Shown here: positions 6,114 through 31,215 of the stretch, piece by piece
Layout of the letters: the number at the start of each line of letters is the position of its first letter
Position numbering within the stretch: position 1 is the first letter of the stretch
Assembly (NCBI GenBank): GCA_046314355.1
Contig: JBKBWQ010000001.1
Span: forward strand, 928,001 to 992,000
Source: Candidatus Altimarinota bacterium
GTDB lineage: Bacteria > Patescibacteriota > Gracilibacteria > 1-14-2-50-48-13
Direction of reading: 5' to 3'
DNA length: 64,000 nt
The notes under the pieces: generated by a model
Database searches by the model: none
What the model saw: the letters and a program-made list of their open reading frames with translations, nothing else
What the model was told of the DNA's origin: nothing
Translations under genes and position numbers: made by a program

Positions 6114-6596
6114 ATGCCGTTTAGCTATAGTTCTTTTGGAGGGAATGATTCCTATTCTCCACTTAATTTAGAAAAATTTCTTTTAAACGAAAGTAATGCA
6201 GTAGAAGATTTGAAAGATAAGGAGGTCAATGTTCAATCAATTGAAAATCTCGCCTTTAATGAAATTATAAAAGCAGTAAGAAAAGCTAAGAAAATAACGC
6301 AACATGATTTAGCAATACAAGTGGATGTACATCAAAGTTTCATTGCTCATATAGAACAAGGTAAAAATTTTCCTAGTGATGATCTTACAATATTACTTGC
6401 TCAAACCTTGAAGATTCCACAAGATATACTTTTAGAAAAAGTTGAATATCAACGAGAGATCTTTGATGCGACACAGCTTGTAAGAAAATTATTAAAGAAG
6501 AAACATATTGATATTGACACATTATTAAATACTATTAAAAAAGAAATTAGTGAAGAAAAAACCCAGCAAGTAAGTACTAAGATTACTTTTAAATAG
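6114..6596 (+). CDS. XRE/Cro-C1 family helix-turn-helix protein
   Basis: IKAVRKAKKITQHDLAIQVDVHQSFIAHIEQGKNFPS matches the HTH_3 pattern. Confidence 0.85.
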   Translation: MPFSYSSFGGNDSYSPLNLEKFLLNESNAVEDLKDKEVNVQSIENLAFNEIIKAVRKAKKITQHDLAIQVDVHQSFIAHIEQGKNFPSDDLTILLAQTLKIPQDILLEKVEYQREIFDATQLVRKLLKKKHIDIDTLLNTIKKEISEEKTQQVSTKITFK

Positions 6597-9906: not shown

Positions 9907-10863
9907 TTATGACTTCCTTTTTCTTCTGAAAATCTGGCGTACAACTATTGCTGCTACTCCCATACTTATGACAATCAGGATATAGTACTTGGCATCTCCT
10001 GTTGCGATCAATTCTTCCATTCTACTCATCTTGCCTGCTACGTCAGAGGATGGATAAAGACTTCCAGTATCTGGATAGAATACTATTTCTTTTACAACTT
10101 TGTTCGGCACTTTATTATTATCGCAGGCTTCAATTCTTACCTTTGTCTCTGCACCTATAGGATCTACAGGCTTATATGTGACTGTGTACTCCTTATCTGT
10201 ACCCGTAATAACCGGCACTACTTCCTTTCCATTTACAAACATTTTCAAACAATCTCTATTCAATCCTTTAATGGTTGGATCCCCTGTCTTCACAGTAAAC
10301 TGGATAGTCGGAAAAAGATTTTTTACCTTTGAATTTGGGATAGGAAAAATATCTGTTACTTCAGGAGGAGAAGTACATTCAGAACTAATAGATCCATCTG
10401 GATTTACAAATAATACTGAGTCGCCGCTTATATTCTGCGCCTGTGCATCATCGGAAGAGAGCATCGGCATGTTCGCAGAGATTGTCGGCATATTTACATA
10501 AAAGTATCCTCCGCTTCCATTCTGTCCGCCTGTCTGAGTCAAAACACTTTTCAAGTATCCGTCCATTTCTACTTCCAGACGGTATACTGCTGGATATACA
10601 GAAAAACTATAGCCGCCATCTGCACCAGTAGTCTGAGGATTTGATCCGTTCTGTACTTCTGCAAGCTGCTGATCAAGCGTATAAAGACTTACCTTTGCCC
10701 CAGCAAGAGGTGCACTCGTCCCCTGATCCATGACGGCACCTGTAATAATACGGACCGGAATAGTCTGGTCTGATGGAGTCTGTGCATCTGCGGGATTCAC
10801 TATAAAAAGCGACATTCCTAAGATAATTGCCGTAGCTGTAAAAAATCGTTCGATGAGTGACAT
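9907..10863 (-). CDS. Exported protein with carboxypeptidase-regulatory-like and Ig-like domains and a C-terminal membrane anchor
   Basis: Signal peptide; ITGAVMDQGTSAPLAGAKVSL...TGADGGYSF. The C-terminus has LIATG, a hydrophobic helix and RRKRK. Confidence 0.7.
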   Translation of the reverse strand: MSLIERFFTATAIILGMSLFIVNPADAQTPSDQTIPVRIITGAVMDQGTSAPLAGAKVSLYTLDQQLAEVQNGSNPQTTGADGGYSFSVYPAVYRLEVEMDGYLKSVLTQTGGQNGSGGYFYVNMPTISANMPMLSSDDAQAQNISGDSVLFVNPDGSISSECTSPPEVTDIFPIPNSKVKNLFPTIQFTVKTGDPTIKGLNRDCLKMFVNGKEVVPVITGTDKEYTVTYKPVDPIGAETKVRIEACDNNKVPNKVVKEIVFYPDTGSLYPSSDVAGKMSRMEELIATGDAKYYILIVISMGVAAIVVRQIFRRKRKS

Positions 10864-10945
10864 AGTTTTTGTGTAATTGTGTTTTTGTATTTCATATAGT
10901 ATTATACCGCATACTTACCGTTTCTTACAACTATCCGGCAAAGAG

Positions 10946-11644
10946 ATGCTCTTCCCAAAACCTCTAATTGAGGGTGTACTACAAAAACGTTATAAACGCT
11001 TTTTGGGTGATCTTCTCTTAAATAATGAGACAGTTGTAGGAGTACATTGTACCAATACTGGTAGTATGAAAGGAATACTCGCAACTCCTCAAAGAGCCTG
11101 GGTACTTAAAAGTGACAATCTCAAACGTAAACTTCCCTATACTCTCGAGATACTAGAAATCCCTCAAGGAAACATAGGAGTCAATACTCACCGGACAAAT
11201 TATTTAGCTCTTGAAGCATTACAAAATAAACTTATTCCAGAACTAGCGGACATAAACATTTTTCAAACGGAGAAAAAATACGGAACAAATTCAAGAATAG
11301 ACATTCTGGGAATTACCGAAGACAATCAGGAAGTATACATTGAAGTAAAGAATGTGAGTCTCGCAGAAGGAAGAAAAGCACTTTTCCCAGATAGTGTTAC
11401 AGAACGCGGCACAAAACATCTCGAAGAACTCATAAAGATTATTCATGCTGGGAAACGGGCAGTGATGCTTTTTATTGCACAGAGAGAAGATGTCGAGAAC
11501 TTTTCACCTGAATCAGAGATAGATCCTCTTTATGCTGCTACTTTAAAGAAAGCCTTTGATGCAGGCGTAGAAGTCTACGCATATAATTGTAAAGTGACCC
11601 CTTTGGAGATTGTAGTCAGTAAGAGACTCCAAGTGATACTCTAA
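10946..11644 (+). CDS. sfsA: Sugar fermentation stimulation protein SfsA (PD-(D/E)xK fold)
   Basis: RYKRFL, HCTNTGSM, SRID, YIEVKNV and FPDSVTERGTKHLEEL motifs. The ATG at 10946 is preferred over the upstream TTG. Confidence 0.93.
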   Translation: MLFPKPLIEGVLQKRYKRFLGDLLLNNETVVGVHCTNTGSMKGILATPQRAWVLKSDNLKRKLPYTLEILEIPQGNIGVNTHRTNYLALEALQNKLIPELADINIFQTEKKYGTNSRIDILGITEDNQEVYIEVKNVSLAEGRKALFPDSVTERGTKHLEELIKIIHAGKRAVMLFIAQREDVENFSPESEIDPLYAATLKKAFDAGVEVYAYNCKVTPLEIVVSKRLQVIL

Positions 11645-11651
11645 GCTATTC

Positions 11652-12182
11652 CTACCCAAGAAATATTCTCATAGTGGACTGCACAACTTGTAATAGAGTA
11701 AATAGCTTCTGATAGAGTTTGTGATACATAGTAGTCTGTACCGGATTTTCAGCTAAATACTCCTCAGCCTTCCTAGTTATATAATTACTTAGCTCAGCGC
11801 ACTCTTTTTCGCTAGCCTGCTTCGCATAACGAGAGAGCTCCCTTGCCTTCCAGTCGTAATATCCTTCTTCATTCATAAACTCACTATCTCCATCTGGGTA
11901 CAATGTCACTGTAGATGCCTCAATCATGTCAGCTATGTCCTGATATGTTCTATCATGGTCTTTGTGCTTAAACGTACTGTTTATGACTGCTAGAGCAATT
12001 CTTATCTCATTCTTAGTTTCATTGCAGGTCATGAATATCTCTGCATGACCATTATCTCCTCCCATAACGTATTCCTCAAAGTATGCGTGCCCAACGGCAG
12101 ACGTAAGATACCCCTGATGCATATCATAAATATCATCTGAGCTTAGCGCTCTATGTGACTGAATGTTTCCTCTTGGATCCAT
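11652..12182 (-). CDS. Hypothetical protein
   Basis: 176-aa ORF with ATG filling an intergenic gap; no motif recognised. Confidence 0.6.
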   Translation of the reverse strand: MDPRGNIQSHRALSSDDIYDMHQGYLTSAVGHAYFEEYVMGGDNGHAEIFMTCNETKNEIRIALAVINSTFKHKDHDRTYQDIADMIEASTVTLYPDGDSEFMNEEGYYDWKARELSRYAKQASEKECAELSNYITRKAEEYLAENPVQTTMYHKLYQKLFTLLQVVQSTMRIFLG

Positions 12183-18187: not shown

Positions 18188-21100
18188 TTATTGATTCTTC
18201 ACCTTCATACTTCGAGCAAGCATAAAGATAATCTCAGACTTCAACGCCTTATCATTCGGTCTAAAAAGCTTAGATTCAGATACGGTTACGATTCCCTTTT
18301 CAACCGCATAAGAAAGATATCCTTTGTACCAAGTATTCTCATCTTTCCAGCTTACATCCGTGAAAGGTTCAGCGCTGCCTGAGAAAGTAAATTTACCATC
18401 ACTCAGCGTCATCTCAAGGATTATCTTCAAAGCTTCGGCTCTTGTAATAGAATTATCAGGCTTGAAAGTACCATCATGGATATAACCCCGTACAATACTT
18501 CGAAGTTTTGCGAGATAAATAAAGAGTGCATCCTGATGAGTAATTGCTACATCTGAGAACGGTGCAGGAAATTCGGAATAGTTTCTAAAATCTTCACAGT
18601 TTCCCTGGATAATATAGCGAAGCATCTCAGATCTATTCACAGAAGCAGCTGGATCAAACACTTCTCCCTGTCTCTGGAAGGCTACTCCTTTTTTCAAAAG
18701 ATTTTCTATAAATATTTTCAGATCTTCCTGTGAAATACTCTCTGCAATCGCAGGATCCTGTGACTTCATCGGAGCACAGATAGTATCTTTGAACGGAATA
18801 TTAAATCTTCCCACTGGAGTATTTGGATTTACTACTTCAGGAGCGCTTGGTCTTGTAGGTGCAGTATTTCCATTTGTATTTCTTCCAGGAACAGAAGAAT
18901 TAGTATTAGCATTTTCACCTCTAGGTTCTACATTGGAATTCTGATTAGTAGTCGGCTGAATATTTGTATTCACATTCAGCTGCGCTACAGGAGTATATCC
19001 TCCACCTCCGCCGCCTGTCGTAGGTGCAGGACCAGCAGGAGGTACTGGAATAACAGTGTCTTCAATAGTAACCGTCAGATCCGGAATGCTCACTGTTGCA
19101 TATCCTTCATCCGTAGTAGTCAGCACATGTGAAATAGTCGCAGTACGGTTTCCATTCGCAGTATTATCATTTGTTATATTTAGAGTGACTATCTGCGGAA
19201 CATTCCAGTTACTTGAAGTAAAGGTAAGAGTTGCAGTATCTGCAATAATACCACCAGTAGTATTGATAGCTACTTCTACATCCGCAGTAGGAGCTTCAGT
19301 AAGAACAATACTATACGTATCTGTTCCCCCATCCTCTGTGATCAGAGTTGTACCTGATGTTTCAGTTATAACTGCATTAAGGTTATAAATAGCAGAAGTA
19401 GTCCATTGCTCTGTGCTTAGTCTTGAACTCTGGAGTGAAGATGGAAATGTTCCATACTCCTGCATCCAGACAAGTCCATCTCCTAATGATCCTGATGTAA
19501 GACTTGGCGCAGAGGCTGTAGAATCAGTCTGATATGCAATCCAGTAATCACCCGCTGGAAGTGAAGTTAGCGTCGTAGGGCTTCCATTAGCAACCGGTAC
19601 TGTTACCCATCCATTAGTTTTATTATTTGGTACTGATCCGCTTTCCCATAAAAGCTGCTTCTGATCGTCATAGAGTGCAAGTTCAATATTTCCGGCAGCA
19701 CTATGAGAATAAAATCGCAACGCATTTACAATACTTGCCGGTTGTGAAAGCGTCATTTTAGTAGCATGCACCATTCCCTTCTGAGAAAGTCCTATTCGAG
19801 TCACAAAAGCCGGATACGTATATGTACCTCCATAGATAAATCCACGCTCAGTATCTAACTGTAGATTATCAAGGGACTCAAGTTTAGGATCAAAGGAGAG
19901 TTCATTGATCTGCGTAAAATCACTAGTTTGTACTGTATGTAATTTTGCGGGCCAACCGGCTGCAAAATAAAGAAGTCCTTTCGCCGCATCTAAGGCTCCC
20001 ATGTATACAGGATTCTGAGGTTCACTGAGACGAATACTTGCGACCTTCGTAAAAGTTGCGAGGTCAATCTTGGCAACTTCACTTCCCAGATTTGTCCAGT
20101 GCTCTCCGGAAATGTATGCAATATTATTTGCCTCATCTATGACTACCGTATTTGTAGACTCCGTCGCTGCAGACAGAGTATCATCTATTTGTAGGGTATC
20201 TGCATCTACCTGGATAAAATCTCCTGAATCCTCATCTCCAAAATAGAGTTTCCCCGTTGTATTATTAATTCCTCCTCCGGTCCATCCCCATTGAGGTGTA
20301 TCTACAGTATCTACAACCGTAAATGTCTGAAGATCAATTTTTCCAATCCGTCCTACACTCTGATTCCATACATTATCTCTCGTTGCTCCATAGAGATAAG
20401 AGGTAGTACTGTCAAAGACAAGTCCATTTGTAAAGGCAGCATCTCCTGTATCCAAAACGGCTTCCTCCGTCATTGTCGCAGCATCTATTTTCAGCATCAC
20501 ATTCGGATATCCTGACCCATTAAAATTACGTCCCGCGATGTAAAGCTTATTTCTTATCGGATCAAAGATAATATTTGCATCAGAAGATGATCCAGGTGTT
20601 GTTCCGATAAACTGGTCAACATATTCAAAGGTCTTAGCATCGACCTTCATAATAGTAATATCCGAATCATTGTGATTGGTTTCTGTCACCACATAAAGAA
20701 ATCCTCCAACAGGATCATATGTACTAAATTTAGCAGCACCATCAGAAAGACCTATTTCATAGTGATCTTCGACAATAAGAGTATCAAGATCGATTATATC
20801 GAGATTATTACCTAATTGTACGTCTCCAGCAGTAAACATATGAATTGTCTTTGCTTGAGGTGCTTGAAAATATGAAATAAGACTCTGATCAAGTAATTCG
20901 ACATTCCCTATTGCATTCATGGCATCCACATCGATACCATATATTGCTGTCTCTTCAGGACTATTAAAAAACTGGGCAGTAACCAGATATATATTTTTGT
21001 CATCTTCTCCCTTAATAAAACTATTATAATAATGATCCGGAAGAGGATTAAAGTTAATTGTTCCTGCTTCTGTAAAGCTTCCAAGATCAATGACAGTGAC

Positions 21101-22893: not shown

Positions 22894-23841
22894 ATGAAAC
22901 AAAGAAACAGCATTTTCAAAAAAGCATGGGAAATCACTACTGATGAGCATAATGCCCGTCTTTTCTGGTACGGTTTTATTCCTGCACTTCTTACTACAAT
23001 AATAAGCTCTCTCACTTATTCTTTCCAAGGATATAGATATTGGACTGAATTTGTCGTCCAGGGAGATGTCCGGTCAGCAGTCCTCAACCTCTTTGGGTCA
23101 TTTTTCGGATATCTTGGAGCAAATCTTGGAATGGGGATTATCCTGATTTTTCTTGGCATCATATTTTTTCTTGCATACTATTTTCTGCCTATCATATTTC
23201 ACGGAGGGCTTATAAAGATCCTGCCAAAAGTACTAGATAGAGAGGCAGTGAAATTTCGAATGGGATTAGTCTATGGAGGAAGATACTTTTTCAAATTATT
23301 TGAATACAAGACTCTCTTCTCTCCCTTTAAAATTACATGGGTACTGCTTACCTACAGTATACTTAAAATATTCAGCCCGGAACTTTTAGGTCCCATGGCT
23401 ATTCCCCTTATCGTCTGGTTTATTATCAATGTTCTGATAAACCTGCTCTTTGTGTTTGTAGAATACTTTATCGTATTAAAGGATAAGCTTGTTCTAGACT
23501 CCATAAGAGCAAGTATGAAAATGGTATTTCTGCACATGGAAGATGTACTTCTCATGATCGGACTGATTCTACTTATGGAAGTCCGAATACTCATAAATGT
23601 TCTCTTCCTTGTAGGTATCCCACTTCTTTTCTTCTTCCTATTAAGCTTTATTACAAACACTCTTCTGATTAGTATTGGAACAGGATTCATTGTCATTCTA
23701 GCCATCGCACTTCTCCTCTTCATTTCGTATTTAAACGCTCACATCACAGTATTTATTACAAGCGCCTGGCTTCTCACATTCATGTACTTTCAAAATGAGC
23801 TTCCTGTTGAAAATGAAACTATAGAGCCAGTTACCTCATAA
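22894..23841 (+). CDS. Polytopic membrane protein of unknown function
   Basis: About 6-7 hydrophobic helices; SIFKKAW and DSIRASMKMV patterns. Confidence 0.8.
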   Translation: MKQRNSIFKKAWEITTDEHNARLFWYGFIPALLTTIISSLTYSFQGYRYWTEFVVQGDVRSAVLNLFGSFFGYLGANLGMGIILIFLGIIFFLAYYFLPIIFHGGLIKILPKVLDREAVKFRMGLVYGGRYFFKLFEYKTLFSPFKITWVLLTYSILKIFSPELLGPMAIPLIVWFIINVLINLLFVFVEYFIVLKDKLVLDSIRASMKMVFLHMEDVLLMIGLILLMEVRILINVLFLVGIPLLFFFLLSFITNTLLISIGTGFIVILAIALLLFISYLNAHITVFITSAWLLTFMYFQNELPVENETIEPVTS

Positions 23842-23917
23842 AATAGGACTTTTTCGAAAAATTCCCTTGTGATTTAGCGAAAATCTCGTACATTATACAC
23901 TGTCCATAGAAAACTAT

Positions 23918-23992
23918 GGCCCCATCATCTAATGGTTAGGATAGAGCCCTCTCACGGCTCAAATCGGGGTTCGAATCCCCGTGGGGTCACCA
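23918..23992 (+). tRNA. tRNA-Glu (anticodon CTC) with encoded CCA; integration target
   Basis: GGCCCCA/TGGGGTC acceptor stem, anticodon arm GAGCC-CTCTCAC-GGCTC, T arm CGGGG-TTCGAAT-CCCCG, 3' ACCA. Confidence 0.96.
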
Positions 23993-25640
23993 ACTGTGAC
24001 ACATTAGAACTAGAAATGTCCTTAAGCCTGAAGTATGGCTTTATTTTTGGTGTTCGAAACTGTATTTCCTGATATGTGGGAGGTGATGAAAACAAAACCT
24101 TAAATAATGGACCGTAGAGAGGCGCATTTTCTTTTTGGGCAAAGATATTAGGAAGGTGTTCGAAGAATTTGTTAGAGAAAGAAATAAGCTCATCTAATTC
24201 CCTCTCACTTAAGTGATCTTCCTCTTTTTGTTTGATAAGGGATTTTTTTTGATTATCTATCTCTTCTATTTTATCTTCAATCATCTTTAGTACAGTAGGA
24301 TTTGAAAGATTCATAAGTTTATTAAATAAACTAACCCGAGTAAGTTCTAACTCCTGTTGGGTATTCTCATAATATTCTTTACTCTTACGTGAGTCTTCAG
24401 TCTTACGTTTCCATACCTTACGCAGTGAGTAATTAAGTACCATAAAATCTATCTTAGTAAAGTTAAGAGATTCAAAGTACTTAAGGATTTCTTTTTCAAA
24501 TGTATCTTTAGAAATACGGAGGAGTTTATGATTTCTATTACAATGATATGCTGGATACCTTGTTCCTGATTTACCTGTTGATGCACTTGCATGAAAAGGT
24601 TTCTGGCACTCAGGACATAAAACTATATTCTTATAGGGATATAGCTCATTTTCTCGCGTCTTTTTCTTAGGAAAGAATTTTGGATCAGTGATAAGTTCAA
24701 TAGTCTTATCTTCATGTAATACTAATATTCTTTTTCCATCCTGTGCAGTATTCCATTGCTCTATACTAATTAGTCCTTCAAATTGAGCTAATACAGGTTT
24801 GTACCATGTCCATTGCTCACATATAATTCCTGCATAAATAGGACGAGAAAGGTATCTTTGAAGTTGTTTAACTTTTAGTTTTGCACCCCCTCTTTGTCCT
24901 TTAATAGTACCTGTTTGCTTATCTCTCACATAGAAGATTCTGCTCTTGTATCCAAGATTATTTACTATTTCTACAATTTGCTTATCCGTATTAATTCCCG
25001 TAGTTTTTAAGTCAAAAATTTTTTTGATGTAATAAGCTTCTGATTCAAGTGGAATAAGTATTGTAACCTTCTGTCCATATTCGTTATATTTTTTTGTAGA
25101 TGCTAAACCATAAGGAGGATTTCTCATCCATAAACCTGATTTTGTTGCAGCAATTTCCGCACCAATAGTACGACATAGTATATTTTTTCTTTCATTTTCA
25201 CTTTCAATAGCTTTTTGTACCTCAGCAGTTTGGCTTGGAGAAATAAGACTCCACGAATAAGACGTACCCAAATGAGCTAGTGCATTTACTTCAGGTTGAA
25301 CAATACTAGTGACGTCAATAATAACTATACCCATTTCTTTGAGCTGATCTTTTATCCTTGTATATCCTCCAACCCCCTCTCTACTCAATCTATCTATAGC
25401 TCTTACAAAAACAGCACTAATATTGTTTTCTTTATTTTTACAAAAAGTTAAAAGATCATTTAGTCGTGGGCGGTCTGATATAGTACCTGTAATAACATCT
25501 GCAAATATAGACTTTATTTCGTATTCTAATTCTTTTGCCTTATAATTACATGCGTTTATTTGATCATTAGTAGAATTCCCTTCCTGATTCTGCTTATCTG
25601 TAGAAACCCGTGCATAGATAACAGCATTTTTCATACTCAA
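23952..25640 (-). CDS. Large serine recombinase (integrase) whose 3' end overlaps the tRNA antisense
   Basis: YARVSTDKQ nucleophile motif, DRLSR, PPYG recombinase domain, CPEC...YHC zinc ribbon and coiled coil. The last codons (VTPRGFEPRFEP*) are the reverse complement of the tRNA 3' half. The ATG at 25634 is an alternative start. Confidence 0.95.
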   Translation of the reverse strand: MSMKNAVIYARVSTDKQNQEGNSTNDQINACNYKAKELEYEIKSIFADVITGTISDRPRLNDLLTFCKNKENNISAVFVRAIDRLSREGVGGYTRIKDQLKEMGIVIIDVTSIVQPEVNALAHLGTSYSWSLISPSQTAEVQKAIESENERKNILCRTIGAEIAATKSGLWMRNPPYGLASTKKYNEYGQKVTILIPLESEAYYIKKIFDLKTTGINTDKQIVEIVNNLGYKSRIFYVRDKQTGTIKGQRGGAKLKVKQLQRYLSRPIYAGIICEQWTWYKPVLAQFEGLISIEQWNTAQDGKRILVLHEDKTIELITDPKFFPKKKTRENELYPYKNIVLCPECQKPFHASASTGKSGTRYPAYHCNRNHKLLRISKDTFEKEILKYFESLNFTKIDFMVLNYSLRKVWKRKTEDSRKSKEYYENTQQELELTRVSLFNKLMNLSNPTVLKMIEDKIEEIDNQKKSLIKQKEEDHLSERELDELISFSNKFFEHLPNIFAQKENAPLYGPLFKVLFSSPPTYQEIQFRTPKIKPYFRLKDISSSNVSQLVTPRGFEPRFEP

Positions 25641-25649
25641 AGTACAATA

Positions 25650-25787
25650 TTATGATTTCTTAAAAGCCTCATAAACAATTTCAGCCAATACTTCAAAATC
25701 ACTTAGCATAAGTGAAATTTGTTCCTCTGTAAGTCCCTTCTTTGTTAAATAATCCTTTATAAGGATTTCTTCATTCATGTGTTCCAT
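25650..25787 (-). CDS. 45-aa acidic protein directly upstream of the integrase; candidate accessory or directionality factor
   Basis: Hand-translated MEHMNEEILIKDYLTKKGLTEEQISLMLSDFEVLAEIVYEAFKKS*; its stop is 9 nt before the integrase start. Below the ORF track cutoff. Confidence 0.65.
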   Translation of the reverse strand: MEHMNEEILIKDYLTKKGLTEEQISLMLSDFEVLAEIVYEAFKKS

Positions 25788-25814
25788 AGTTCAGGTAAGA
25801 TTCACCTGAACTAT
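25786..25814. promoter_or_regulatory. 11-bp inverted repeat overlapping the start of the small ORF-integrase unit
   Basis: ATAGTTCAGGT-aagattc-ACCTGAACTAT. Confidence 0.6.
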
Positions 25815-25869
25815 AGAGAAGACTTTTACAGAAGTTTCAGAACTTTAGATTTAATCTAAAAAATAATAA

Positions 25870-26553
25870 CTACATTAACTTCTTATTAACGAGCGTTGAA
25901 TAAAGCCTAATACTGTTAATCTGTTTCTCAATTTCCTTCACTTCTTTATAAATTATTGTTTCAATACTTGAATAATTCTTTTTAATTTCAAACTCCTTAT
26001 AAATATATTCCAATGCAGTCTTCATAGTCATTCCACCATTCTTTAATTGATATGCACGCAATGCAATATCAAAGCTTCTTCCTTTATCCCATATACGAGT
26101 ATCAAAGAAAAAATGCTGTATGAGTTTTTTCTGCTCATCAATCTCTTTCCACATTTTCCTAAATTCTACACTTGTAATATCGTATGGTACTTGAAGTGTC
26201 ACATAAGGGACCATAGAGGCTACAGGGGCAATAGAAGCTGTACCATTGCCATTGTAACTTGTAGTAGTGAGATGAGTTACAGTATTCAGCACTATTCTTT
26301 CTGGATATTCAGCAATCCTTTTACTCAATAGAGAATAAAAGAACTTGGGTATGTAAAACTCTTTAGCTAACTCAAGAAAAGCTGAAGAAGTTTGATCTAT
26401 CATAAGAGCCTGATCTACTAACCTAAAGTTATACAGTTCCCTATTTTTGAAGCACTTATTCATAGCACTCTCAAAGAGCTTACTCTTATAGAAGAGAGTT
26501 TTGAGATAGATGAATGCACTTCCTCGGGAAACAGATACTATTTTCTTAGACAT
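25870..26553 (-). CDS. Island hypothetical protein with a possible C-terminal HTH
   Basis: 227 aa; ALRAYQLKNGGMTMKTALEYIYKEF is HTH-like (weak match). Confidence 0.6.
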   Translation of the reverse strand: MSKKIVSVSRGSAFIYLKTLFYKSKLFESAMNKCFKNRELYNFRLVDQALMIDQTSSAFLELAKEFYIPKFFYSLLSKRIAEYPERIVLNTVTHLTTTSYNGNGTASIAPVASMVPYVTLQVPYDITSVEFRKMWKEIDEQKKLIQHFFFDTRIWDKGRSFDIALRAYQLKNGGMTMKTALEYIYKEFEIKKNYSSIETIIYKEVKEIEKQINSIRLYSTLVNKKLM

Positions 26554-26598
26554 AAAGATAAGTCAAATGAAGCTGTATTAAATAATTATACATTATTA

Positions 26599-26907
26599 CT
26601 AAAATTTACATTGATAAACCTTTGCATCTTTAGGTTTCTCACAAGAAAAAGAATTTGATTTTTCTATTCCTAAATCAGTCTTGGAATAAAAATTACCTTT
26701 TCTTATTTCAGTATCACCTGACTTTGATGAAGAACAAGCACCCATTCTAAGAGTACTAGGATTTTTTACGACCATATTTATTTGAAACATTACTGGCTCA
26801 CAAGGATTCCCTAGTTTATTTGGTAGGAAGAAAATACCCAGTGATACACAAAGAAATAAGGCAAGAATACCCATACCCACTAATGGGTCCGCAAAGTTGA
26901 TTTTCAT
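26599..26907 (-). CDS. Small membrane-anchored protein with a four-Cys soluble domain
   Basis: ATG at 26907 (MKINFADP), one TM helix, then four Cys residues. Confidence 0.6.
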   Translation of the reverse strand: MKINFADPLVGMGILALFLCVSLGIFFLPNKLGNPCEPVMFQINMVVKNPSTLRMGACSSSKSGDTEIRKGNFYSKTDLGIEKSNSFSCEKPKDAKVYQCKF

Positions 26908-26942
26908 GTTAGAGAATGTAACATAAATAAATAGAGAACTGC

Positions 26943-27090
26943 AAAAAGGGACAACCCTCAACAGATTCTCCCAACTCTAGGTCCCATTTCGGGCTATGAT
27001 GCTGGCTGATGAGAGGTGCCCCTCAGTGTTCAGCATGCACAGCCAATAACTACAAAAGTAGTATTTTAATGGTTTCCTAGTTGGGAGAAT
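26943..27090 (-). ncRNA. Putative structured leader or small RNA in the island
   Basis: 12-bp closing stem ATTCTCCCAACT/AGTTGGGAGAAT with internal hairpins. Minus-strand TTGATC-N16-TATACT immediately upstream and AGGG-ttgt-CCCT-TTTT immediately downstream. Confidence 0.5.
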
Positions 27091-27224
27091 ACTTGGAGTA
27101 TATAGAAAAACCTATCAAGATCAAGCCTAGAGTCAATCACTATAATTCTAAGGAATTTGATAGTCTTTTTTCTGTCACACGTTACAATTCAAATATTATC
27201 TATGATTCATATTAAAAATTATCT

Positions 27225-28172
27225 ATGAAACTTACAGCAAAACTACCTATTAATTTATCTATTCTCGAAGGAAGTACTTATAAAAAAGATATCTACATGG
27301 ATTTTATAAATAGAAAAGTTTTGGTAACGACTACCATAAATTTTGAGCTTAATAAAGAACATACTCAGGAAGCATATAATGTAGGCTTCTTTAATGATGA
27401 TAAAAGCCTAATGGGACAAACAATATTTGAGATAGATGTCGACTTAACAGAAGAGGAAGAAAAATTATTTGAAACTGAGAGATTCAATAAGATAGGATTT
27501 GATGCAAAAATATTTACTTCAGTAGTGAATGAATTAATTGATTTATATAGGTATAAATCTAAACATTGGTGGATTGAACGTATTTATGAAGATCATATAA
27601 AAGATATATTAGTATCATATAAATATAGTAACTTTATGACCGAGGGAGGTTTTGAAGGAGTATACTCTTCAGACCCTAAAGAAAGAGATAGACTTAAAAA
27701 TAGTATCTCTAATGCCTACCTTCAGAATCAGGAAATTCCTATATTCCTTGAATATCTATTACTTGCTAATAAATATCTCCATTACAAACGGTATGACTTA
27801 GTATCTGTTAATATAAATATTGCACTGGAGAGCTTAATTTACTTAATTTCAAAAGAAGTATTAGGTGATGAACGACATGAAAAATTAGTAGAAGGAGAGC
27901 TATGTAAATGCTGTGAAAGACGAATATACCCAAACTTAAATAAGATTACATCAGAAATAGATACGATACTTCATTATGATCACGATGTTAATAAAGATTT
28001 ATTAAAGAAGATTCAACGACCAAAGGATAGTACACTTAGAAATGATATTACACACGGGCATGTAGTATTTTTAAGCAGGAGTCTGAAGTATGAAGAACAT
28101 GCAAATTTACAGTATGACTCTTTTATAAAGCTTATGAAAATTTACAAGATACAAATAAGTGAATACCTCTAA
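27225..28172 (+). CDS. HEPN-domain protein (ApeA-like architecture); candidate defence RNase
   Basis: C-terminal RNDITHG (RxxxxH) preceded by the IALESLI helix typical of HEPN domains. Confidence 0.65.
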   Translation: MKLTAKLPINLSILEGSTYKKDIYMDFINRKVLVTTTINFELNKEHTQEAYNVGFFNDDKSLMGQTIFEIDVDLTEEEEKLFETERFNKIGFDAKIFTSVVNELIDLYRYKSKHWWIERIYEDHIKDILVSYKYSNFMTEGGFEGVYSSDPKERDRLKNSISNAYLQNQEIPIFLEYLLLANKYLHYKRYDLVSVNINIALESLIYLISKEVLGDERHEKLVEGELCKCCERRIYPNLNKITSEIDTILHYDHDVNKDLLKKIQRPKDSTLRNDITHGHVVFLSRSLKYEEHANLQYDSFIKLMKIYKIQISEYL

Positions 28173-28240
28173 TTATTCAAATATAGAATTCAGTACTTAA
28201 ATTTCTTTCTATCATTGATGTAGTATGTTTATATAAAACA

Positions 28241-29020
28241 TTATTCATTAAGCTTATACTTAGTTTGAAGCCGAAAAGTACCAAAAAATTTAATAAATTC
28301 TTCTTTATTTGTATCTATTAATGTGAATAGAGATATTTTCTCATCACTTTTGCATGTTAGTACCTGAATAGTATTTTCTAACATATTTAGAAGAAATACT
28401 GATTTTTGCATTATTCTTTCCCAATTAAAATAAATATAATTTTGAATAATCAGATTTTTTTTGAAATCCTTAGAATAGTACGAAAAAGATGAATTAAAAT
28501 TATTTAACTGAAATGATTCACCCTTATCAGATTGTAGATTTATCACTCCTCCTTGTGAACTTACCATCCTAAATCCATGCTTAAATGCATTGAGTAATTC
28601 AAAGTCTTTTAAATAATCATGAGATATTTCTGATAAGATTGAAAAGTATAAACTTTTCTTTCGATCAAAGTTTTCAATTAGACTTTTATCATTTACACCA
28701 AACACCCAGTTATTAAAGAAATATTTTGTAAATTTATAATAGTTCTTTCTTTCAAGTACTAAATTCAATCTCTTTCTTAGTTGGTTATTACTTAAAAAAA
28801 GATTATTCCACAAATCATTTTCAGTAATAGTAAAAATGTTAATCCAAAAGACTTCTACTAGCTGTAGATGCGTAGTATAAAGTCTTACAGTCCATATCTT
28901 ACGATCTTTTTCGGAGCATGTTTGGAGCTTTTCACTATATAAGTCTAGTGATTCATTCCAACTGGAGAGATCAAAATGTTCGTAATACTCCTTAATACTC
29001 ATTGGAAGCAATTCATCCAT
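28241..29020 (-). CDS. Island hypothetical protein with a HEPN-like NxxKHG motif
   Basis: LLNAFKHG in a helical context. Confidence 0.55.
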   Translation of the reverse strand: MDELLPMSIKEYYEHFDLSSWNESLDLYSEKLQTCSEKDRKIWTVRLYTTHLQLVEVFWINIFTITENDLWNNLFLSNNQLRKRLNLVLERKNYYKFTKYFFNNWVFGVNDKSLIENFDRKKSLYFSILSEISHDYLKDFELLNAFKHGFRMVSSQGGVINLQSDKGESFQLNNFNSSFSYYSKDFKKNLIIQNYIYFNWERIMQKSVFLLNMLENTIQVLTCKSDEKISLFTLIDTNKEEFIKFFGTFRLQTKYKLNE

Positions 29021-29028
29021 AATTTTCG

Positions 29029-29832
29029 TTAGTTTGTCTGAAGTAATATCTGTCCTGAACCATTTAGTTGAGTATTCATTAATAGACTCTTTATCTTTAT
29101 TTGCTCTTGTTTCAGAGCCTCATTCTCTACTTTTAGTTCGTTCATTTCTAAACTAGTAGAATTTTTCATTTGTTCTAATGTCTTAATTCTATTTTGTTGT
29201 TCAATAAATGAAGCGTTATTCTCAATAACAGCTGGATTATTTTTATCTCCAAATGCTAATATAACTGCCCCTAGTAGGATTAACAACAGAGCACCAAATA
29301 AAAATTTAATAATTTCTTCAGGTATCTTAGCCAGTTTCTTACCTTTAATCCAAAACTCAGTTATTAATAGCGATAGTAATACTAGAAAAACTATCCCCCC
29401 AAGCATGATAATAGTTAATCCTCCAATACGCCAAAAATCTGTTACTGCTTTCAGTATCTGAACTTCTATGGAAAAAAATGTAAAGATTGCTACAAAAATA
29501 CCAAGCAGTTCAATCACTCGAATTTTATCATTTTCAATACTATCTTTTTGCTTTTTTAATTCTTGCTTAAATTTTTTATCTTGTATTATTAGAGCTTTGT
29601 CTAATTCAGCTTTAACTTCATTTAGTCTATCTTCTAAATCTCTAATTGCTTTAAGTTTTTCCTGAGTAAGTTGACCAAAAACTGCTTCAATCTTTAATAA
29701 GCTATCTCTCTCAGTTGTAGAAAGAAGAACTCCTGAAGCAATCAGCGTAGGATTTGCAGAATTACCAGAAATCAAGCGATTAGGAGAATTAGGAGATGTG
29801 CCTGCACCAATTATAGGATTGAGCTGAGTCAT
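29029..29832 (-). CDS. Coiled-coil / 3-TM / coiled-coil membrane protein
   Basis: Heptad regions flank three hydrophobic helices (IELLGIFVAIFTFFSIEVQI...). Confidence 0.75.
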   Translation of the reverse strand: MTQLNPIIGAGTSPNSPNRLISGNSANPTLIASGVLLSTTERDSLLKIEAVFGQLTQEKLKAIRDLEDRLNEVKAELDKALIIQDKKFKQELKKQKDSIENDKIRVIELLGIFVAIFTFFSIEVQILKAVTDFWRIGGLTIIMLGGIVFLVLLSLLITEFWIKGKKLAKIPEEIIKFLFGALLLILLGAVILAFGDKNNPAVIENNASFIEQQNRIKTLEQMKNSTSLEMNELKVENEALKQEQIKIKSLLMNTQLNGSGQILLQTN

Positions 29833-29837
29833 AATTG

Positions 29838-30635
29838 CTATACTGTTAAATCAGAAGCTGACACTTTATCGGCGGTCTCGGTAGTTGTAGAAGAGTTTTG
29901 AATTGCTTTAACAAAATCAATACTTTCTTTATCTGTATTATCTAGGAAAGTTAAAAATTCTTTTTCTAAAGTAAGCTTTAGATCATCAGTTGGGAAAGTA
30001 TTTATATCAGTAGATAACAACATCAATCTTTTATTATCAGTTGCTGATACAATCCCAGTATTAACTAAATGAGATTTATTAATAAGAACTTCTTTATCAC
30101 CCCAATTAGTTTTACTCTTAGTTAGAAAGTTTAAGGAAATCTCAGAGTCATCATCAAAAGTTATTGGAAGGTTACTATCGTTAAAGATAAATTTTATTCT
30201 TTCATTTCTATTTTGTATATTATGAGAAATATAAGATGAAATGTAACCTAAATTTTTTATACTTAATTCTTGTTTATTTATAAAATTGAACAGTAACGTA
30301 ACTTTATCACGAAAGTCTTTTTTATAATTTGTTTCATTATCAGGTTGATCTTTTACTGTACTGATATTTTCTTCTAACTCTAGTTTATTACTACTATAAG
30401 TAAAAAAATAATTTATATCTAATCTATCCCTTGTTACCTTAAATTCAAAAGTATTTGGTTTGCTAATTATTAACCGAGGAACTTCAGGTGCAACATCATC
30501 AGGTAGAGGTAATAATAATGGTTTCATCTCATCAAATATAGAGATAAAGTCTGATATATATCTGTCAATTGGAAGAGAGTATATATCTAAAAAGAAAATT
30601 AGTTGTAATGAGGCTAGTCGAAATTCTTCCTTCAT
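29838..30635 (-). CDS. Island hypothetical protein, possibly TIGR04255-like
   Basis: LPLPDDVAPEVPRLII...RDRLDI and LSTDINT patterns; first gene of a tight three-gene unit. Family call is from recollection only. Confidence 0.55.
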   Translation of the reverse strand: MKEEFRLASLQLIFFLDIYSLPIDRYISDFISIFDEMKPLLLPLPDDVAPEVPRLIISKPNTFEFKVTRDRLDINYFFTYSSNKLELEENISTVKDQPDNETNYKKDFRDKVTLLFNFINKQELSIKNLGYISSYISHNIQNRNERIKFIFNDSNLPITFDDDSEISLNFLTKSKTNWGDKEVLINKSHLVNTGIVSATDNKRLMLLSTDINTFPTDDLKLTLEKEFLTFLDNTDKESIDFVKAIQNSSTTTETADKVSASDLTV

Positions 30636-30727
30636 AATATATAGCTTTATATAATTGCATTTATTGAGAACACCCTAGCATAAGAATATATAAATTCATA
30701 CAGAATTTTAGCTATGAGAATGTAAAT

Positions 30728-30805
30728 CTATACATATCTAATATGACCTATTGCTCTCATATCCTCAACAAAAGAGTTCCAACTTACATCCAGTTGGCTC
30801 ACCAT
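30728..30805 (-). CDS. Displaced C-terminal fragment of the serine recombinase at the right junction
   Basis: In frame with the integrase across the TCACCA core: (M/L)VSQLDVSWNSFVEDMRAIGHIRYV*. Confidence 0.7.
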   Translation of the reverse strand: MVSQLDVSWNSFVEDMRAIGHIRYV

Positions 30806-30904
30806 TCTTCGCTTCTCACGAAGCTACGAATGGCACGGCCAGAATGGAATGAATCTTCGCAAGCGAAGATTTTATAATATATAGCGAAGAATGTCCCTCG
30901 TAGC
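30803..30904. repeat. Nested palindromic element, probably the original trailer of tRNA-Glu
   Basis: CATTCTTCGCT/AGCGAAGAATG, GCTTC-tcac-GAAGC, AATCTTCGC-aa-GCGAAGATT and GCTACGA/TCGTAGC. Confidence 0.6.
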
Positions 30905-31215
30905 CTACTCAAAACTGTAAGTTGCTTGTTCATTGTGGCGTAGAGGGATGCCCAATCATAAAGCATTGATGTATTTTTGTACCCTGATGAGTCTATCACA
31001 GTTCTTTTTATAATATACACCGTAAAAAAATTTATCCCTAACTACTAAGTACCCCCACTATCACTCACACTCTGAGCCCTCAGAACACTACTCCCCACAC
31101 GTCCCCTCTTTTAAAAACTCCTTTGTTTTTAATCTGGCTATGCTATACTTCCCCTGTCAAGATACAAACAAATGGTAGAGAAATACCCTCTTACGTTCTC
31201 ACGCCATACTACTAC

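Follow-up and report, generated by a model that had tools for sequence, protein, structure and literature searches.

Architecture of the island and its integrase gene

The stretch analysed here (the window) comprises 64,000 nucleotides of contig JBKBWQ010000001.1, positions 928,001 to 992,000 of the forward strand, from the Candidatus Altimarinota bacterium assembly GCA_046314355.1. It carries a low-GC island of 6,812 bp (window 23987-30804) inside the 3' end of a tRNA-Glu(CTC) gene, and the subject of this work is the serine integrase gene at the left end of that island, whose open reading frame (ORF) runs through the left junction and into the antisense strand of the tRNA. The GC content is 0.24-0.35 within 24000-30500, compared with 0.36-0.43 in the flanks. 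The tRNA-Glu(CTC) gene is the sole tRNA that ARAGORN finds in the window and the sole Rfam match, and it is still intact after the insertion because the element supplies the terminal ...TCACCA. The features at the two ends of the island are:

23918..23992, + strand: tRNA-Glu(CTC), the integration target (ARAGORN; Rfam RF00005, 59.4 bits)
23952..25640, - strand: large serine recombinase (LSR) gene, integrated form; 562 aa with a TTG start or 560 aa with the ATG at 25634
23952..23987, - strand: tRNA-antisense part of the integrase ORF; 11 codons (TPRGFEPRFEP) and the stop, predicted unstructured
23987..23992, no strand: left TCACCA core (attL), from the sequence; the last six bases of the tRNA
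23993..24018, no strand: P' arm of attP, within the integrase coding sequence (codons ...SSSNVSQL)
30728..30799, - strand: orphan tail exon, 23 codons (SQLDVSWNSFVEDMRAIGHIRYV) and a TAG stop; overlaps the P arm
30799..30804, no strand: right TCACCA core (attR), from the sequence; spanned by an independent contig (27750-30828) of sequencing run X1

The extent given for the P' arm takes an arm of about 25 bp. The resident integrase ORF ends ...SNVSQLVTPRGFEPRFEP*, with its last 11 codons and stop lying within the tRNA gene. Translation probably starts at the ATG two codons into the ORF, since the database copy of the protein (P0001) has 560 aa. When the two cores are joined by coordinate, at any position of the core, the result is a 6,812-bp circle in which the integrase reads ...SQLV-SQLDVSWNSFVEDMRAIGHIRYV, a form of 574 aa that stops at the TAG at 30728-30730. 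The orphan tail exon is in frame with the integrase solely in this circular (attP) form, and its tryptophan codon sits 7 codons past the GTG codon, as in all relatives examined. The original prediction, which had been made from the letters of the window alone, had claimed the ORF through the left junction, its tRNA-antisense end, the two cores, the 6,812-bp circle and the 574-aa form, and these claims hold at every coordinate.

The reconstructed attP carries a perfect dyad, CAGTTGG-CTCA-CCAACTG, centred on TC and strong only beside the core. From this symmetry the crossover dinucleotide is likely to be the TC at 23987-23988. Across 13 elements the arm symmetry is weak (9.5/26 matches within an element, 8.1/26 between elements), and dyad symmetry was dropped as a general mark of attP.

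Several lines of sequence comparison bear on the identity of the protein. The Pfam Resolvase family (PF00239) matches residues 6-112 with an E-value of 2.9e-17, and PHROG 95 (integrase) matches residues 147-482 with an E-value of 1.2e-44. Zn_ribbon_recom (PF13408) is matched at 3.2e-4 and 21.4 bits, under its curated cut-off of 25.3, and PF07508 (Recombinase domain) misses an E-value of 0.01 on the window integrase, yet it is precomputed on many homologues. Residues R11, S13, Q17, C342, C345 and C367 do not vary in a 12-sequence alignment (A1), and H366 hardly does; S13 of the RVSTDKQ motif is presumably the catalytic serine nucleophile. The AlphaFold2 (AF2) model of the window integrase has a mean predicted local distance difference test (pLDDT) of 92.2 and places long helices at 396-444 and 448-474, where a coiled coil is expected. 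The model of the nearest unsplit homologue (P0002) matches the SPbeta integrase chains 9y66 and 9dxh over its full length (Foldseek E-value ~5e-15) and also matches the phiC31 integrase. By sequence and model, the window protein is classed as an LSR, having a resolvase-type catalytic domain at its N-terminus, a recombinase domain (DBD1) behind the long alpha-E helix and a zinc-ribbon domain (DBD2) into which the coiled coil is inserted; it is present as one copy in the genome.

The boundary of the island

A 6-bp TCACCA repeat is weak evidence by itself, and so the boundary needs further results. These come from the sequence that adjoins the right junction:

30802..31080, + strand: tRNA-trailing repeat of ~280 bp, including a terminator-like hairpin; outer edge of the island

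Six further copies of this repeat are present in the genome at 79-89% identity, and each starts at the CCA of a tRNA, namely Arg(CCT), Met (two genes), Leu(TAA), Ser(GGA) and Cys. A shorter copy follows tRNA-Glu(TTC), where it reads ...CCGTGGGGTCACCA|TTCTTCGC... and is an empty-site look-alike; the end of this tRNA-Glu(TTC), ...CCGTGGGGTCACCA|TTCTTCGCTTCTCACGAAGC..., is the predicted empty site, base for base. Because paralogous empty sites in the same genome show a tRNA and then the repeat, this layout is, on sequence comparison, the ancestral one, with the island placed exactly between the two parts.

The sequencing runs comprise X1, which has the island (Logan contigs) and is probably the sample from which the assembly came, and two further runs without it (X2 and X3). 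Independent X1 contigs span attL (23000-27777) and attR (27750-30828) at flank depth, and the depth (X1-X3) is even over the island and its flanks at ~20-21. Moreover, when a profile of 27 tails from the integrase family (described below) was run on 2,437 six-frame fragments of the window, the best match was at 30731-30823 on the - strand, with 12.0 bits and an E-value of 0.018; the next had 7.9 bits. These data bear directly on the possibility that the boundary is an artefact, composed of a chance 6-bp repeat, a chimeric assembly and a chance open frame mistaken for a 'tail'. Such a reading can point to the mere 6 bp of TCACCA and to the position of the right junction beside a multi-copy repeat prone to assembly tangles, where the summed depth is 55-131. 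However, the paralogous empty sites set the boundary to the base, separate independent contigs cross each of the two junctions, the window's tail ranks first of all the fragments in the profile search, and the same architecture occurs in more than 130 other loci. The artefact is close to refuted and is left with hardly any probability.

The repeat itself starts with CCATTCTTCGCTTCTCACGAAGC and contains a terminator-like hairpin followed by a T-run. Its copies lie on the genome contig (G000:C1) near 1170611, 403184, 726826, 206251, 366219 (-), 1483919 and 541137 (-), so that with the window eight tRNAs are concerned. No Rfam match was found for it. A fold of the consensus has 42 predicted pairs, of which one shows a double change, and the copies are too alike for structure to be tested in this way. 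It could represent a transcription unit that trails tRNA genes, or else a mobile repeat of small size. At two places in the genome the 16-nt sequence of the empty site is present exactly and unoccupied, ~541137 (-) and 1170610 (+) of G000:C1. The unoccupied site at tRNA-Glu(TTC) has the last 10 nt of the B arm in common with the occupied tRNA-Glu(CTC), and the second follows tRNA-Arg(CCT); both are potential secondary attB sites.

Two kinds of integrase C-terminus across the family

A first homologue search returned proteins of 28-39% identity with two kinds of tail. Some end in tRNA-antisense sequence, as in ...LVTSPGIAPEFQA and ...VTLPGIEPGLPA, and others end like the reconstructed form of the window, as in P0002 (...LVDRNLQSWKIITNELRAIKSF...), P0004 (...LSLQWNTFESEIRQ...) and P0012 (...GLGWNTFETIILQWNAVF...). 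A profile search of 1.84 billion representatives gave 1,149 clusters at E ≤ 1e-30. The full-length proteins among the best 150 profile matches, taken together with the homologues from the first search, number 123; their tails are tRNA-antisense in 75, of the type that opens on a Trp-Asn pair (WN) in 26 and of other kinds in 22, the last class including several variants without the tryptophan and proteins that are cut short.

The loci were then considered in their genomic context. The genome loci are the best 80 of 279 stretches in species-representative genomes that encode a relative, and nearly all belong to Saccharibacteria and other candidate-phyla-radiation (CPR) lineages. An antisense tRNA lies beneath the end of the ORF in 66 of these 80, and in 49 of the 66 it is tRNA-Glu; the other targets are tRNAs for Lys, Arg, Leu, Gln, Trp, Phe, Gly and Val. 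Four more loci are cut by a contig end inside an apparent tRNA and two have an ORF that runs through the tRNA, which brings the count to 72/80. The unsplit WN form was found in 4/80. The metagenome loci are the best 80 of 403 stretches, and because some records are common to the genome set the two sets of counts are not independent; here a tRNA overlap is seen in 64/80 and the unsplit form in 9/80.

No integrase relatives were found in the viral collection. Two records from that collection with the exact 18-nt junction motif (L178 and L179) were taken as chance matches, as neither carries a relative of the integrase. Three metagenome records considered as circular permutations of one another (L093, L094 and L095) were rejected, as they are overlapping linear pieces.

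Contigs often stop at, or within a few dozen bases of, the junction between the integrase gene and the tRNA (L016, L033, L043, L089, L105, L117, L133 and L135). The frequency of such ends fits populations that are mixed for the presence of the element.

A conserved tail at the far end of the elements

The tails of the unsplit relatives follow a consensus of roughly WNT[LI]E..[VI]L.W..VF, and the window's version reads SWNSFVEDMRAIGHI. When a profile of 27 WN tails was applied to all six frames of the 80 genome loci, the integrase strand held all 12 of the best matches and the opposite strand held none. Apart from unsplit genes, these matches are orphan tail fragments located 3.6-11 kb upstream of the integrase, at ten loci (L060, L040, L024, L090, L050, L079, L043, L088, L068 and L012), and the orphan far ends of L019 and L064 had been found before the profile search. 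Where the far end is within reach, an in-frame tail was recovered at 12 loci and in the window. At these loci the integrase reads ...GTG ACC(tRNA) and the far end ...GTG A[GA]C followed by 5 codons and TGG AAC, always in frame; the open length from the far-end codon has a median of 35.5 codons in frame versus 11 in the +2 frame (n=12). The original prediction had named unconserved or immediately stopped tails in homologues as grounds for its own rejection, and it withstands that check: tRNA-antisense ends are in the majority, and a tail of the SWN type is restored in frame at the 12 loci and the window and is conserved in unsplit relatives.

Two earlier ways of finding far ends had been dropped. 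A score combining a 6-mer core with a dyad did not separate true from false sites, and a loose 'W[NK]' expression with a shared 6-mer returned 13 reverse-strand control loci versus 14. The far-end fragment of L040 (4499-4768) has ~17 extra integrase-like codons (...FFKVNADSDSDKSLNV) upstream of the crossover codon, and these look as if they were the leftover 3' end of an earlier or tandem copy.

The share of hydrophobic residues in 37 tails, by position counted from the tryptophan, is:

+7: 95%
+10: 81%
+13: 72%
+14: 76%
+17: 64%

The hydrophobic positions thus show a helical pattern, with polar residues between them. Positions 0, +1 and +3 were fixed by the way in which the tails were selected and were excluded from the evidence for conservation. 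The codons at the hydrophobic positions vary synonymously between elements, and the helical pattern together with these synonymous changes argues that the tail is under selection as a peptide.

A contrary reading is that attP overlies the 3' end of the integrase gene by chance in a compact element, that the two isoforms recombine alike, and that the tail is kept for folding or stability or as bound P-arm DNA, direction being set by a separate factor such as the product of an island ORF. Indeed, the first W-N pair is encoded by TGG AAC in 15 of 15 cases, invariant even at the synonymous site, which fits a constraint at the level of DNA; part of the tail conservation may therefore reflect the P arm of attP, and this much counts against a tail selected wholly as protein. 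Moreover, which peptide takes the place of the tail depends on the target tRNA (Glu, Arg, Lys, Gln, Trp, Leu, Phe, Gly or Val), so that these replacements hold no common signal, and a 45-aa ORF adjoins the integrase gene. However, the attP of such enzymes is ~50 bp and a half-site ~25 bp, as can be gathered from work on the SPbeta integrase (PMC11722253), and the conservation extends ~50 nt past the tryptophan codon, beyond such a half-site. The helical periodicity holds over that ~50-nt stretch while the codons change synonymously, and the TGGAAC motif has no mirror in the P' arm. The structural predictions given below also speak against a neutral overlap, which is considered rather unlikely, though it deserves serious weight.

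The same integrase in both states

The unsplit integrase on a 6,531-bp metagenome contig (L153) and the split integrase of a Saccharibacteria metagenome-assembled genome (MAG; L054) are 100% identical over 570 aa. Their DNA is identical over 2,228 nt and diverges exactly past ...ATGGTGA, from where L153 continues into ...SSASLSWNSLYPDLISL... and L054 into tRNA-Glu antisense sequence. L153 also matches an integrated copy (L044) at 99.9% over 6,413 nt, to the same base. Further pairs are formed by L035/L097 with L014/L096 (96.7% aa identity, tRNA-Glu), L115/L130 with L111 (~89%, tRNA-Gln) and L098 with L072 (78%, tRNA-Lys). Natural pairs in both states stand beside an anatomy that is general over a very large, mainly CPR family and a tail that is conserved within it at the protein level.

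L153 (1-6531) and L044 (1-6407) have their first base in common within the element, and the end of L153 falls 19 nt past the stop codon of the tail. Such ends would be expected of a ~6.5-kb circular unit broken at a fixed spot in assembly; L153 has no terminal overlap.

On a tree of the 123 proteins, no fewer than 14 changes are required to account for the two tail states of 101 rows, and the four-member clade of the window integrase contains both. By this reconstruction the tail state appears to flip often, as expected of a reversible event. In addition, unsplit genes occur on small contigs of 2.4-8 kb, matching the size of the elements.

Predicted docking of the tail and a proposed mechanism

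In the AF2 model of P0002, the linker equivalent to the crossover (561-580) has a pLDDT of 53-64 and is followed by a tail helix (581-602) at ~90. In the model of the resident form of the window integrase, the last ~25 residues are coil with a pLDDT of ~50, and the rest of the protein is unaffected. Next, the body of P0002 (1-566) and its tail (570-603) were submitted to complex prediction as separate chains, each aligned with unsplit relatives only. The complex scored 0.64 versus 0.05 for the best of 3 controls; of solved complexes, 58 of 80 attain this mark, as do 2 of 110 mismatched pairs, a calibration that is rough since a custom alignment was used here. The runs share at least 50% of contacts, and the pLDDT of the partner is at least 53. 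The predicted contacts of the tail are with residues 425-432, 500-516, 522-538 and 557 of P0002, which by the secondary structure of the model correspond to where the outgoing coiled-coil helix begins, to where the returning one ends and to the helices after it. No solved structure with sequence likeness to the contact region was found, and the docking score is thus unlikely to stem from the memory of the model. The tail is therefore predicted to be a conserved amphipathic helix that docks at the base of the coiled coil.

The position of this predicted site is of interest because of what is described for the SPbeta integrase. There, the essential C-terminal helix of the directionality factor lies between the second DNA-binding domain (DBD2) and a basal 'inter-hinge' segment of the coiled coil, and restraint of the inter-hinge segment redirects the reaction (PMC11722253). 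The SPbeta integrase is of the same enzyme class by fold, and a short helix between DBD2 and the coiled-coil base decides direction in it. The tail helix of the present family is predicted to contact the equivalent region, where equivalence is by secondary-structure position and not by superposition. The SPbeta helix is carried by a separate protein that is made on demand, whereas here it is part of the integrase and would be removed and restored by recombination. A helix with a pLDDT of ~90 that is predicted to dock where a bound helix matters in the SPbeta integrase speaks against a neutral overlap.

Taken together, the reading that is preferred, and held to be somewhat better than an even bet, is that of a small integrative element moved by an LSR, with its crossover in its own recombinase gene, in which integration swaps a docked helix and possibly records the state of the element. 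The attP crossover lies inside the gene, ~24 codons ahead of the native stop. While free or unrecombined, the gene ends in a flexible linker and the conserved amphipathic helix. Recombination with the 3' end of tRNA-Glu leaves the tRNA intact and cuts the gene at ...GTG|A; the resident copy then ends in 11 residues, predicted to be unstructured, taken off the antisense strand of the tRNA, and the far end of the element keeps the helix-coding piece, now an orphan. The helix probably packs onto the coiled-coil base and the helices after it, and since this is the hinge used by the SPbeta directionality factor, its presence or absence would bias the coiled-coil trajectory. In consequence the isoforms would recombine different att pairs or differ in activity, and the DNA would encode a record of the state. 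A functional switch of this kind, which the original prediction had also put forward, is plausible in view of the sequence conservation, the models and the SPbeta analogy.

A number of observations weigh against this interpretation. No circular contig was found among the 80 metagenome loci by a terminal-overlap test. Likewise, neither a circle joint nor an empty-site joint is present in the contigs of X1, the sole run with the island, although the original prediction had proposed a search of the reads for both; contigs drop rare variants, so those of X1 are uninformative on excision. Nor do the 28 contigs of the assembly contain the circle junction, and none of the small ones matches the island. 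Within its family, the tail of the window element is divergent (12 bits). Unsplit genes lie not only on small contigs but also on contigs of 100 kb to more than 1 Mb, including two of 1.05 Mb and 1.16 Mb, as well as in one complete Flavobacteriales chromosome of 5.9 Mb (L081) and one contig of 2.17 Mb (L165). Moreover, a clade of nine representatives has no tail of the tRNA type, with eight WN tails and one variant without the tryptophan. From the very large contigs and this clade it follows that a WN tail does not simply equal a free circle. In some lineages the gene may never be split, and in these the crossover may lie elsewhere or the gene may be part of a nested or tandem element. The docking score is the opinion of a model, its confidence on two pieces of one cut polypeptide. 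Lastly, by analogy with fusions of integrase and recombination directionality factor (RDF), a helix in this position could favour excision, which would be the 'wrong' way for a free circle; this analogy leaves the direction of any switch open, and which isoform favours which direction cannot be told from the sequence.

The unsplit members on megabase-size contigs outside the CPR comprise the Flavobacteriales chromosome, an Alphaproteobacteria MAG and a protein that its source names as Rhizomicrobium (L081, L074/L165; P0034, P0047). A 21-kb locus (L059) carries an orphan tail at 6434-6559, an unsplit integrase of the family at 9926-11740 and a more distant serine recombinase at 19525-21096, and the end of this second recombinase overlaps a tRNA-Ala. 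The locus may represent an array, or two elements of which one is nested in the other.

A bolder form of the proposal is that of a self-editing integrase, in which the tail is a directionality module acting in cis that would sit in the hinge at the coiled-coil base, where directionality factors act in other serine integrases, such that enzymes made from the chromosome and from the circle prefer opposite reactions without a separate factor. Because the crossover falls between the enzyme body and the helix, each recombination would remove or restore the helix module, and this would be a family-wide solution in tiny CPR genomes. The idea is tentative and is given well under an even chance.

Alternatively, the exchange could act as a lock of the SSV1 kind, in which the resident protein without its helix is inactive or unstable and the element stays in place unless another copy provides integrase of full length. 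Prediction makes the helix a part of a packed bundle, the X1 contigs showed no excised form, and in phage Mx8 the replacement of a 112-residue C-terminus of Int by 13 residues is reported to yield a less active enzyme (PMC4701971); all three are in keeping with a lock. However, the catalytic and zinc-ribbon residues are invariant in alignment A1, tRNA-tailed members included, ORFs of about full length overlie the tRNA in the majority of loci of both sets (66/80 and 64/80), and the resident body is predicted to fold at a pLDDT of 92 without the helix. The same element also occurs in both configurations across data sets with 99.9-100% DNA identity, for which recent excision or repeated integration is needed. 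A lock is accordingly regarded as improbable, and the swap of a docked helix with a possible record of state is retained as the working interpretation.

Relation to known systems

The original prediction had proposed that attP lies inside the integrase gene and that the C-terminus is rewritten, and this stands, at least for the crossover and the P arm; its choice of SSV1 and of mycobacteriophage BPs as precedents does not, as phage Mx8 and the streptococcal rumA integrative and conjugative elements (ICEs) provide closer ones.

In Mx8, attP is within int, and integration gives the gene a new 3' end and the enzyme an altered behaviour (PMC6070905). As here, the crossover is in the integrase coding sequence and yields a recombinant gene; according to the text available, the altered protein (intP to intX/intR) is still active but behaves differently. 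Unlike the present enzymes, Mx8 Int is a tyrosine recombinase, with another mechanism, no coiled coil and a much larger segment replaced, and Mx8 is a single phage whereas the trait described here is family-wide.

The rumA ICEs were described in silico by Ambroset et al. (2016; PMC4701971). In these, the one serine integrase gene contains an att site, so that its C-terminus differs in the excised form, and the authors suggest that the forms may differ in function. The claim of the original prediction that no LSR equivalent is known was therefore too strong. Both systems have a large serine integrase with an att site within its own gene. The rumA ICEs, however, use a protein-coding target with a reciprocal exchange of 3' ends and a change of frame, whereas the present elements use the 3' end of a tRNA and keep the frame; the former are conjugative with Firmicutes hosts, and the latter have mostly CPR hosts and lose a piece that is a conserved helix. 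The accessible text of the rumA report, an in silico study, mentions no conserved tail motif, structure or natural pairs. So far as these sources go, the principle of an att site inside int is already known, with the rumA ICEs as its serine precedent in silico.

Integration of SSV1 splits its int gene, which is cut roughly in two, as opposed to the loss of a short tail here. In mycobacteriophage BPs, attP is within the repressor gene (PMC4557955). With both systems the present elements have in common a crossover in a gene of the element and a gene product altered by integration; what is rewritten in BPs is the repressor gene, and its integrase belongs to the tyrosine recombinases. A minority of tycheposons carry LSRs, and the accessible text on them does not mention gene splitting. 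Literature searches, which covered articles without their supplementary files, returned no description of this LSR family, of a serine integrase split by a tRNA or of a conserved tail that is removed when the element integrates; att sites of this kind may be listed in the supplements of large LSR catalogues.

The choice between integration and excision is a central question for serine integrases and a practical limit for genome-writing tools, as the control of direction normally requires another protein, and this partner is difficult to identify. The family offers a natural experiment, in which isoforms differ by one predicted docked helix, with hundreds of natural variants, known attB sites (the tRNA 3' ends) and attP sites that can be reconstructed. 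It also constitutes a major class, apparently not reported before, of mobile elements that target tRNA genes in CPR bacteria, whose mobile elements are, to our knowledge, little studied. The tRNA-antisense ends explain the odd ...GxEP... ends of integrase ORFs annotated in CPR genomes.

Remaining features of the island

Upstream of the integrase gene, the ORF list gives the following:

25650..25787, - strand: 45-aa ORF directly upstream of the integrase gene
25870..30635, no strand: cargo region of six ORFs
25870..26553, - strand: cargo ORF
26599..26961, - strand: cargo ORF, doubtful
27225..28172, + strand: cargo ORF
28241..29020, - strand: cargo ORF
29029..29832, - strand: cargo ORF, membrane protein by eye
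29838..30635, - strand: cargo ORF

The product of the 45-aa ORF is a possible small regulator or directionality factor; it has no significant family in Pfam, PHROG or PADLOC and no homologue in the 160 related loci. The cargo ORFs have no Pfam, PHROG or PADLOC family at E ≤ 0.01 save for chance-level rows, and no tblastn match in the 160 related loci or elsewhere in the genome. The integrase seems to be the sole common part of the elements in this LSR family. In a scan from which no conclusion is drawn, promoter-like sites were rarer than in shuffled sequence and terminator-like sites numbered 5 versus 2.8 expected.

The P arm of the window element has a hairpin of its own, CCAACT-GGATGTA-AGTTGG, at 30779-30797 on the - strand, which the relatives looked at do not show. 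A motif of the CAGTTGG type thus occurs three times in the reconstructed attP.

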